Assembly (NCBI RefSeq): GCF_024223415.1
Contig: NZ_CP100510.1
Reading direction: 5' to 3' (one strand)
Source of the DNA: Escherichia coli
GTDB taxonomy: Bacteria; Pseudomonadota; Gammaproteobacteria; Enterobacterales; Enterobacteriaceae
DNA: 1,565 nucleotides
Under the pieces are notes generated by a model. That model saw only the letters and a list, made by a program, of their open reading frames with translations. It was not told the origin of the DNA and searched no databases. Of the stretch, positions 1-1,166 are shown one piece after another (within the stretch, counting starts at the first letter, position 1; the number at the start of each line of letters is the position of its first letter). A program made the translations under genes and the position numbers.

Positions 1-49
1 ATGTGCAAATGTAATACCGTCACCCGCGACGATATTCCGTTTGCCATCT

Positions 50-74
50 GGTCAGGGCTTCGCCCCGACACCCC
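50..74. repeat. 25-bp perfect inverted copy of the oriT hairpin segment (exact reverse complement of 1386-1410)
   Basis: GGTCAGGGCTTCGCCCCGACACCCC at 50-74 is the exact reverse complement of GGGGTGTCGGGGCGAAGCCCTGACC at 1386-1410. The asymmetric flanks (1 nt one side, 5 nt the other) also match, so this is a true inverted duplication and not just the hairpin's own near-palindromy. Identity stops exactly at both ends. Confidence 0.9.
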
Positions 75-110
75 GCATCAGTGCGTACGTGCTCAATGTG
101 GTTTCCGGTT

Positions 111-171
111 CTCTTCCGCTTCCTCGCCCACTCGCTCACTAACGTTCGGTCGCTGGGGCTGCGGCGAGCGG
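111..171. other. Conserved ColE1/pMB1 origin-proximal block (candidate primosome-assembly / single-strand-initiation site)
   Basis: CTCTTCCGCTTCCTCGC (111-127) and GGCTGCGGCGAGCGG (157-171) are identical to the flanks of the block CTCTTCCGCTTCCTCGCTCACTGACTCGCTGCGCTCGGTCGTTCGGCTGCGGCGAGCGG that I recall lying about 45-125 bp downstream of the replication start in pBR322/pUC (similar in p15A); the middle is diverged. Same orientation as the oriT match. Function as a pas/ssi site is inferred. Confidence 0.55.
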
Positions 172-476
172 TGCCACCTCTCGCATGTTGTCGGTGATTC
201 CGCTGTTGTTCTTTCGGGGATAAGTCGTCAGATAGCCCTTCAAACGCGCTCAGAAGCTCTCAGACGCACGAAACGGGGTTTAAATGCCCGTCAGGGCATG
301 GAAGGCGCGAAAAACGCTTACAGAGCGTTTCAGGAGGTCAGGCGCGCCGATACCCCTAGCCAGGGGCTTTCAGGTCGCCAGGAACCGCGCCAGCCCCCTG
401 CAAAGCCCATTTGCACGGTACAGGCAGCCACTCGGTTGGTAGGTGGTCGTAGACCGTCGGTGTTACAGCGATGGGG

Positions 477-559
477 GTCTGGGGTTCTCCCCAGACGGTT
501 TCCGGTTGCGCTCAAGGCGCTGCCGGAACCGTGGCGGCTCGATCGTTCTGGAGATCGGG
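477..559. ncRNA. Cluster of three consecutive GC-rich stem-loops; candidate RNA I / RNA II-like antisense-control region (strand, ends and function undetermined)
   Basis: SL1 477-496: perfect 8-bp stem GTCTGGGG/CCCCAGAC, loop TTCT. SL2 497-530: GGTTTCCGG...CCGGAACC outer stem (one bulged T) plus inner GCGC/GCGC stem, loop TCAAG. SL3 538-559: CGATC/GATCG core stem, 8-nt loop GTTCTGGA. Three hairpins in about 85 nt is the RNA I architecture. Weak convergent promoter candidates flank it (see findings). No canonical terminator found. Confidence 0.3.
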
Positions 560-622
560 GAGCAAAAACACGCAAGGGATTTTGAGGCGGCAAAAGAGCA
601 ATGCAGGATAGACAACCCGATG

Positions 623-686: not shown

Positions 687-1166
687 TCAATTTGAAAACA
701 TGGCCATGATTCGGCGCTGAATATCACCGTCTTTGTTGACCAGTGTTTTAGTGACAAACGCCGCGTAGTTTTTAGATGTGTTGTATCCCTTCCAGACTTC
801 ATGTGGATCGAGTGCATACGCACAAACCTTACCAGCAACAGGAATTCTGACTAACGCGTTTTTTGATTCTAAGTAGTTGAGCCAGCGCTTAATTGTGCTT
901 CGGCTAACACCCAATTTATCTGCTAAAAACTGCTGATCGGCAACAACAGCACCGCATGAGGGATCTATGTGCTCAGCTAAAAACGAGTAAAGCGGTATTG
1001 CTACAACTCCCTGCTTGTCCTTCGACAGTTCTCGGATCCTTTCCCAGCCCTTCTGATAAACCTGGGTGAATGGGCCGTTATTTTTCGGATCTGATTCCGA
1101 TTCTTTGTTTAATTTTTCCAGTTCTTTTAGACGCTTTTTTCGCTGCTCTTCAGTCCCGATATACAT
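687..1166 (-). CDS. 159-aa winged-helix (HTH) DNA-binding protein; best guess a small-plasmid replication initiator or autoregulatory maintenance protein (RepA of tiny pKL1-type plasmids, or RepL-like). Family assignment is from memory and unverified; a cargo transcriptional regulator is the alternative.
   Basis: Only long ORF with coding-like composition. ATG is the reverse complement of 1164-1166, preceded by a GGAG Shine-Dalgarno (rc of 1174-1177) with a 7-nt spacer; stop TGA is rc of 687-689. Helix-turn-helix at about residues 77-98 (DQQFLADKLGVSRSTIKRWLNY, encoded about 873-938) followed by a wing-like segment (ALVRIPVAGKVCAYALDP). N-terminal 30 residues are K/E-rich. Upstream region is dense in operator-like repeats. 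Confidence 0.8.
   Translation of the reverse strand: MYIGTEEQRKKRLKELEKLNKESESDPKNNGPFTQVYQKGWERIRELSKDKQGVVAIPLYSFLAEHIDPSCGAVVADQQFLADKLGVSRSTIKRWLNYLESKNALVRIPVAGKVCAYALDPHEVWKGYNTSKNYAAFVTKTLVNKDGDIQRRIMAMFSN

Follow-up and report, generated by a model that had tools for sequence, protein, structure and literature searches.

The primary papers on plasmid pKL1 are those of Burian et al. (1997, Plasmid 37:2; 1999, J Mol Biol 294:49; 2003, Biochemistry 42:10282), and its RepA protein reportedly hexamerises, going by the title of the last of these. In PLSDB, pKL1 (NC_002145, 1549 bp) has a single CDS, whose product is UniProt O07102. One account describes pKL1 as a "selfish" plasmid with repA as its only gene (PMC3526173), and another attributes its copy control to Rep autoregulation that operates without iterons or antisense RNA (PMC12361487, citing Burian 1999). 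A study of plasmid pAES1 reports that pKL1 has an IHF box (PMC3832669). The Rep protein of pAES1 is 46% identical to pKL1 RepA, and all the shuttle plasmids made by placing the pAES1 REP region in a ColE1-ori vector replicated in Alphaproteobacteria only (PMC3832669). At a greater distance stand the RepL proteins of staphylococcal plasmids, for which a recent preprint proposes a "single winged-helix" (sWH) supergroup of initiators that also includes RepA_N and others (10.1101/2024.09.03.610885).

Here we analysed a stretch of E. coli DNA of 1565 bp, the window, and compared the protein that it encodes, and the region upstream of the gene, with these systems.

Results

The plasmid and its gene

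The window is a complete circular E. coli plasmid of replicon type Col(MG828). A megablast search of PLSDB returned a dozen records of exactly 1565 bp and 100% identity, mostly from E. coli isolated from human, animal, food and water sources; pABU (1564 bp), from the asymptomatic-bacteriuria strain ABU 83972, is 99.8% identical to the 1565-bp plasmid. In the matching records a single CDS is annotated, on the minus strand at 687-1166, and its product WP_000275450.1 is named "helix-turn-helix domain-containing protein". Of 5426 complete E. coli genomes, 33 contain the module that is specific to this variant (1075-1306). A locus search with an alignment of closer relatives gave one locus in the viral collection and 27 loci in the genome collection, mostly copies of pKL1 or of the 1565-bp plasmid.

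The annotated CDS, which we call repA, runs on the minus strand from an ATG at 1166 to a stop at 687 and encodes a predicted single winged-helix protein of 159 aa. Its computed mass of 18.17 kDa (pI 9.4) agrees with the figure of about 18 kDa in the original prediction, which had been made from the letters of the window. By reading the sequence, we located a Shine-Dalgarno GGAG at 1174-1177 on the same strand, 7 nt 5' of the ATG. Comparison of RepA residues 32-159 with pKL1 gave a dN of 0.08, a dS of 0.94 and a dN/dS of 0.09; repA is under strong purifying selection.

A second long ORF of 194 aa (1-585, plus strand) is called "rep protein" in some RefSeq records, and its ATG is the start point of many records. 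It has no match in Pfam. We rejected it as a second gene: substitutions relative to five relatives are spread evenly across codon positions, and 1-2-nt indels and extra stops interrupt the frame in pKL1, pABU and L008. The repA ORF is the sole credible gene of the 1565-bp plasmid.

An Rfam search of the window gave no credible match, and ColE1 RNAI/RNAII were absent from it even at E <= 1; the same search readily detected RNAI in a ColE1-type control plasmid. Because the window holds no ColE1 RNAI/RNAII, the plasmid needs its own initiator.

Several stretches outside repA resemble sequences of other plasmids, and no relaxase gene is present on the 1565-bp plasmid. Positions 1-75, in a match that runs over the record junction (1545-75), are 88-92% identical to the IncI1 stretch directly 5' of nikA, which is the IncI1 oriT. 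Positions 1381-1446 are 92-100% identical to the stretch just past rop in ColE1-type Mbe/MobC plasmids, which is bom. The stretch at 114-173 matches part of the interval that separates rop from RNAI on a ColE1-type plasmid, presumably at about the position of the primosome assembly site (pas) of pBR322. Plasmids whose Rep proteins share only 51-63% identity have 92-96% identity across the GC-rich, hairpin-rich region at approximately 190-640.

Relationship to pKL1

BLASTP aligned RepA with the pKL1 protein over the full length of both (159/158 aa) at 78% identity (E 3e-94), and nearly all of the divergence falls within the first 31 residues. Collinearity of the two plasmids extends across practically the entire sequence, at ~80-85% nucleotide identity, and pKL1 is likewise typed Col(MG828). 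In each case the gene is the only one on a plasmid of ~1.55 kb and is preceded by the same series of elements, namely an IHF box, two tandem palindromic repeats and then a promoter with related half-sites. In contrast to this shared layout, the first 31 residues and ~140 bp of upstream DNA have diverged, the repeats are unrelated (TAGCTCAC... in the 1565-bp plasmid and TGTCGCATCC... in pKL1), and the recognition helix shows a single difference, K93 in the 1565-bp plasmid versus I93 in pKL1. Judging from these sequences, the two plasmids probably belong to different Rep/site specificity groups.

Family and predicted fold of RepA

The original prediction named a profile-HMM search with RepL and Rep_3 models as a check. 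In Pfam, RepA matched HTH_36 (PF13730) with 28.2 bits over residues 59-102, above the gathering cut-off of 25 bits, and RepL (PF05732) with 16.8 bits (E 0.005) over residues 57-134, under the gathering cut-off of 20.3 bits. No Pfam match was found to Rep_3 at E <= 10, nor to Rep_1, Rep_2 or Rep_trans, and NCBIfam gave sub-threshold HTH matches only. The best PHROG matches carried the annotations "replication initiation protein" and "DnaD-like helicase loader".

HMMER, run exhaustively against 1.84 billion cluster representatives, yielded 353 relatives at E <= 0.001. Among 73 diverse full-length relatives, 65 matched HTH_36 and 49 matched RepL (E <= 0.01; best 3.7e-10), which bears out the RepL-like layout of a small initiator that had been proposed for this protein. 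Two relatives, L005 Rep (22.5 bits) and P0137 (22.7 bits), exceed the RepL cut-off. Relatives of this kind, such as the protein with 51% identity on Shigella/E. coli plasmids of 1.8 kb (22.5 bits), carry the PGAP name RepL. On these profile scores RepA ranks as a peripheral relative of RepL and not as a formal member. The names within its 90% clusters are mostly "HTH domain-containing protein"; some sources use "RepA plasmid replication protein", and a few name an XRE or YdaS regulator.

An AlphaFold2 model of RepA, built on the 73 diverse relatives, had a mean pLDDT of 89.7. The N-terminal part is modelled as a helix (6-24) that a linker of lower confidence connects to a short strand (35-36), followed by two helices (38-48 and 51-65). 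A winged HTH follows, with a strand at 73-77, helices at 78-85 and 89-101, the latter being the recognition helix, and a beta-hairpin wing at 105-119; the C-terminal part consists of short helices. The model thus contains one winged-helix domain and not a WH1-WH2 architecture, and RepA fits the single-winged-helix supergroup of initiators. To our knowledge, no structure exists of the RepL-like single-winged-helix initiators of RepA's group.

The region upstream of repA

A sigma-70-like repA promoter with a putative operator occupies 1186-1225 on the minus strand, with a -35 element TTTACG at 1225-1220 and a -10 element TATATT at 1202-1197. The -10 element lies in the loop of an operator inverted repeat, ATGATGGCT/AGCCATCAT (1186-1194/1203-1211). 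Two operator half-sites, TGAGCCA at 1190-1196 and TGAGCTA at 1211-1217, lie within 21-bp direct repeats (1186-1206/1207-1227). The promoter had earlier been described as looking autoregulatory, and the overlap of its elements with the inverted repeat and the TGAGCYA half-sites upholds that description.

Beyond the promoter lie two tandem 25-bp repeats, TAGCTCACACATGCGTGAGCTAACC, at 1242-1266 and 1268-1292, which have a spacing of 26 bp and a dyad core each; they are putative RepA sites within the origin. The half-site TGAGCYA is present in 7 copies in the plasmid versus 0.4 expected, and 200 shuffles never gave as many. Of these copies, 5 fall within 1190-1289. An 11-nt perfect inverted repeat at 680-690/877-887 also contains the half-site. 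We considered it as a distal RepA site and judged it to be a chance occurrence, since one arm is constrained by coding and in pKL1 the two arms mismatch at two positions.

A match to the IHF-box consensus, AATCAATAACTTA, is found at 1313-1325 on the plus strand, inside the part of the plasmid that is richest in A/T (about 1296-1355). It is the single match in the plasmid, versus 0.06 expected, and a related box, TAAGTTATTGWTTTT, occupies the equivalent position in most of the family plasmids read. A short hairpin, AAAGTGTTGCGC / GCGGAACACTTT (1356-1382), separates this A/T-rich stretch from bom; pKL1 has a comparable inverted repeat at this position.

Co-variation of the upstream 7-mer and the recognition helix

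The upstream region of the 1565-bp plasmid was compared with those of 11 other family plasmids, pKL1 included. The remaining ten are plasmids of Klebsiella, Enterobacter, E. albertii, Shigella and Aeromonas, one IMG/VR contig, and contigs labelled Tatumella, Vibrio, Nocardia and Jeotgalicoccus. All of the family plasmids read have a plasmid-specific repeated motif and a promoter directly 5' of rep, and in most of them an A/T box and a tandem pair of repeats of about 25-26 bp are present as well. In 12/12 plasmids a plasmid-specific 7-mer was present in 3-6 copies within the 200 nt 5' of rep and in 0-1 copies elsewhere.

The 7-mer co-varies with the recognition helix. The 1565-bp plasmid and the Tatumella contig L024 share both the helix SRSTIKRW and the 7-mer TGAGCTA; L008 (TTRTVRNW) and L028 (TTRTIRSW) both have the 7-mer ATAGGAA; and L009 and L012 share the helix SVRTIQRW and have an ACGACA core in common. 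The members of each pair have different N-termini. L027 and L028 present the opposite case, being identical over their first 43 residues and different in both helix and 7-mer. This co-variation is the strongest internal evidence from the sequences that RepA may bind the repeats adjoining its own gene via the winged HTH.

There are, however, two exceptions. The helix of pKL1 (SRSTIIRW) differs from that of the 1565-bp plasmid at K93I only, and the repeats of the two are unrelated; pKL1 and L035 share TGTCGCA though their helices differ. The code that links helix to 7-mer is not a simple one.

The charged N-terminal segment

RepA residues 1-30 include 6 K, 6 E, 2 R and 1 D, a K/E-rich composition for which the original prediction offered no explanation. 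Such a segment proved to be a feature of the family: in 69 of the 73 members at least 10 residues precede a conserved KNxxFTQVY motif, which lies at residues 28-36 in RepA, and the segment has a median length of 34 residues and a median charged fraction of 0.43. In RepA, residues 6-24 are predicted to form a helix (pLDDT 84-93). The pattern R-[LI]-[KR]-x-x-[ED]-[LI] is kept in the segment, which is much shorter in the E. albertii member.

Because the first 31 residues have diverged from pKL1 together with the repeats, we considered them as a determinant of DNA specificity. This was rejected, as L027 and L028 combine the same N-terminus with different repeats and the 1565-bp plasmid and L024 show the reverse. 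The charged N-terminal helix is thus not the determinant of DNA specificity. As it shows no tie to specificity, we suggest that it may act in oligomerisation or contact a host replication factor; the segment is in this way partly accounted for, as a family-wide charged helix.

Discussion

We are highly confident that the 159-aa protein is RepA, an initiator and a repressor of its own promoter, and the orthologue of pKL1 RepA. The original prediction had favoured the RepA of a pKL1-type 1.5-kb plasmid, and the full-length identity of 78%, the collinearity of the two plasmids and their common Col(MG828) type bear this out. Homology, fold, site anatomy and the co-variation of site and protein come from the present analysis. 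For Rep function, the location of the origin upstream of rep, self-regulation and hexamerisation we rely on published work on pKL1 and pAES1.

The arrangement of these elements suggests how the plasmid may replicate. RepA would bind the two tandem palindromic 25-bp repeats (1242-1292) by its HTH and wing, probably as dimers. The repeats adjoin the IHF box and the A/T-rich stretch at 1296-1355, where bending and melting may open the origin for the host replisome, and the ColE1-type pas-like stretch at 114-173 may serve in lagging-strand priming. RepA would also bind the TGAGCYA half-sites that overlap the -35/-10 elements of its own promoter (1186-1225), and we propose that through this binding the concentration of RepA restrains repA expression and determines the copy number. 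Copy control of this kind would be of the "Rep-only" type, without an antisense RNA. The N-terminal helix at 6-24 would most likely act in oligomerisation, as the hexamerisation reported for pKL1 RepA suggests, or in contact with a host factor.

Other functions of RepA have to be weighed against this reading. It is unlikely that RepA is a rolling-circle initiator, as traditionally assumed for pSN2-family RepL plasmids, which nicks at or near the palindromic repeats and uses the GC-rich hairpin region as a single-strand origin. The relatives of RepA do match Pfam RepL, a review files the RepL/pSN2 plasmids, with their dso and ssoA, as rolling-circle (PMC5703833), the region at 190-640 folds into many hairpins (z -3.0 and -3.2 for the two strands), and Y117 is nearly invariant across the family. 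However, RepA lacks an HUH (H-x-H) motif and has two histidines only, and the model places Y117 in a beta-strand of the wing. The layout of the IHF box, the A/T-rich stretch and the repeats by the promoter is that of an origin melted by Rep, and the preprint cited above (10.1101/2024.09.03.610885) puts RepL among the single-winged-helix initiators.

A role as a transcriptional regulator only, in which RepA would be a cargo or housekeeping repressor and another element would replicate the plasmid, is very unlikely. It could draw on weak Pfam matches to the GntR, MarR, DeoR and Crp HTH families and on the XRE/YdaS-type regulator name that some sources use, but the matches to regulator families are all sub-cut-off and limited to the HTH of ~30 residues, and RepA is orthologous to a protein described as RepA. 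The plasmid has no cargo to regulate and no other gene or RNA primer system for replication, so that the cargo regulator entertained by the original prediction finds no place on it. The same prediction had allowed for an oriT-binding accessory of the relaxosome, MobC/MbeC-like, which would serve the ColE1-type or IncI1-type oriT copies, and it was correct that repA lies on the rop/mob-gene side of bom and is transcribed away from it. That position, which is also the one held by rop and mbeC/mobC in ColE1-type plasmids, and the presence of two oriT-like stretches speak for such a function, which we nevertheless regard as extremely improbable. Searches of Pfam and NCBIfam gave no match to MobC/MbeC or any other mobilisation family; the fold of RepA is a winged helix in the model, and ColE1 MbeC is filed as ribbon-helix-helix, according to the title of a paper. 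No relationship in sequence or fold connects RepA to Rop or to MbeC/MobC, and the plasmid has neither RNAI/RNAII for Rop nor a relaxase for an accessory protein. The motif that co-varies with RepA adjoins its own promoter and not the oriT stretches, and bom is ~86-93% identical among plasmids whose Rep proteins are only 51-63% identical and whose repeats differ. Homologues accompany a MobV relaxase in Aeromonas and on pAES1 (PMC3832669). On plasmids with this other transfer system and on those with different backbones, each homologue invariably keeps its own cognate repeats immediately 5' of the gene. The slot on the rop/mbeC side of bom is filled by a replication origin and not by a mob gene.

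As an initiator that represses its own promoter, RepA can be compared with several described groups. It shares with the RepL proteins of the staphylococcal pSN2 plasmids a size of ~18 kDa, a central HTH and an occurrence on very small plasmids, and the variation at residues 85-95 of pSN2-family RepL, which is thought to set specificity (PMC5703833), parallels the variable helix at residues 88-95 of RepA. Unlike these proteins, RepA scores below the RepL cut-off (16.8 versus 20.3 bits), has hosts among the Proteobacteria and possesses the charged N-terminal helix and the KNxxFTQVY motif. The RepA_N proteins of pSK41 and pTZ2162, whose structures have been solved, resemble RepA in having one winged-helix DNA-binding domain; there is no significant sequence similarity, however, and they carry a separate C-terminal host-interaction domain where RepA has only short helices. 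In the model, the structural match of RepA to RepA_N is no better than to unrelated repressors. With the Rep_3 initiators (F RepE, R6K pi and pPS10 RepA) RepA has in common repeats by an A/T-rich stretch and, as proposed, self-repression via related sites. These initiators, in contrast, combine WH1 and WH2 and use four or more direct iterons, whereas RepA has one winged helix and two palindromic repeats.

Read jointly, the family data allow a wider suggestion, which we put forward tentatively and hold at slightly less than an even balance. The type Col(MG828) may hide several Rep/site specificity groups, probably incompatibility groups, and a cassette of repeats, promoter and rep may be exchanged on a more conserved backbone of oriT, pas and GC-rich hairpins. 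Specificity would then come from very few residues of the winged-helix core, and the charged helix at the N-terminus would serve oligomerisation or host contact as a module without influence on specificity. The co-variation of 7-mer and helix offers a natural data set on how small single-winged-helix (RepL-like) initiators read DNA.

The finding on RepA is in itself an ordinary one, as the protein is of a known "Rep-only" initiator type and its sequence has database entries already, although under poor labels. The biology is little changed by the identification of such an initiator on one of the smallest natural plasmids. RepA is present on at least 1000 contigs under the label "helix-turn-helix domain-containing protein" or XRE/YdaS, and the non-coding ORF at 1-585 is called "rep protein". 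Both labels mislead annotation and plasmid typing. The plasmid also has no relaxase gene yet carries two oriT copies, an observation that bears on the spread of such "non-mobilizable" plasmids.

Exchange of the origin/rep cassette between plasmid backbones

The plasmid pLR-71-1_12 (NZ_AP027611.1, 1,572 bp), designated L010 among the loci carrying rep homologues, combines parts of two related plasmids. Its repeats, promoter and most of its repA are of the pKL1 type, while its backbone and the 3′ end of its repA are close to those of the window plasmid, with 94% identity from repA codon 33 onwards and complete identity to window positions 1–585. Judged from these identities, L010 is a natural chimera, which shows that the origin/rep cassette has been swapped between backbones.

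Mobility-related and ColE1-type sequences of the backbone

The backbone carries two oriT-like sites. The region at 1–75 shows 88–92% identity to DNA that, in many conjugative plasmids (approximately 80–240 kb), directly precedes nikA/nikB; the one of these plasmids that was checked is IncI1. By sequence identity, this minus-strand stretch, which continues across the circular junction to about 1545–1565, is assigned as a copy of an IncI1/R64-type oriT. The second site, a ColE1-type bom/oriT stretch at 1381–1446, was recognized from its 92–100% identity to the DNA just 3′ of rop in Mbe/MobC colicin plasmids. A 34-nt inverted repeat (50–83 and 1377–1410, 88% complementary) joins the ColE1-type bom to the IncI1-type oriT; the two oriT-like sites therefore lie in inverse orientation on the plasmid. 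No relaxase gene was found on the 1,565-bp plasmid, and some of its copies are classed as non-mobilizable by MOB-suite.

Further ColE1-type DNA is present at 114–173, which is 96–98% identical to the DNA between rop and RNAI in ColE1-type plasmids. Neither RNAI nor RNAII is present in the window itself. The counterpart of this stretch in ColE1-type plasmids is located roughly 100 bp past the predicted ori, where ColE1 has its primosome assembly site.

The GC-rich region and the open reading frame at 1–585

The non-coding region at about 190–640 is GC-rich and contains many short hairpins, with folding z-scores of −3.0 and −3.2. It is better conserved than the rep gene, since it shows 92–96% identity among plasmids whose Rep proteins are only 51–63% identical. 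This region possibly represents single-strand initiation signals or the Col(MG828) typing target.

Some RefSeq records annotate a 194-aa ORF on the plus strand (1–585), whose ATG is the start point of many database records, as encoding a “rep protein” (WP_173002421.1). This candidate was rejected, as the frame is broken in relatives by frameshifting indels and extra stops, substitutions show no codon-position bias, and the product has no Pfam match. The annotation is probably spurious.

An inverted repeat overlapping repA

A perfect 11-nt inverted repeat, CGCTGGCTCAA (680–690) and TTGAGCCAGCG (877–887), includes the TGAGCCA half-site, a form of the putative RepA site. The stop codon of repA falls within one arm, and the second arm is part of the sequence coding for the recognition helix. 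Because the repeat has two mismatches in pKL1, it probably arose by chance.

Occurrence in other records

In the genome contig scan, the window plasmid, pKL1 and other family plasmids were found on small contigs (loci L013–L023, L026, L028 and L035) of assemblies labelled Bradyrhizobium, Rhizobium, Flagellimonas, Streptococcus, Micromonospora, Clostridium, Corynebacterium, Nocardia and Jeotgalicoccus. Their presence in these assemblies appears to reflect contamination from the laboratory or from reagents and not the range of hosts. Part of the repA module of the window plasmid is also held by an E. coli chromosome record (NZ_CP146250.1, 1218136–1218323), which could reflect integration or misassembly. 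A 33.7-kb IMG/VR contig classed as viral (IMGVR_UViG_3300030498_000002, L012) carries a 66%-identical homologue together with its own repeats.
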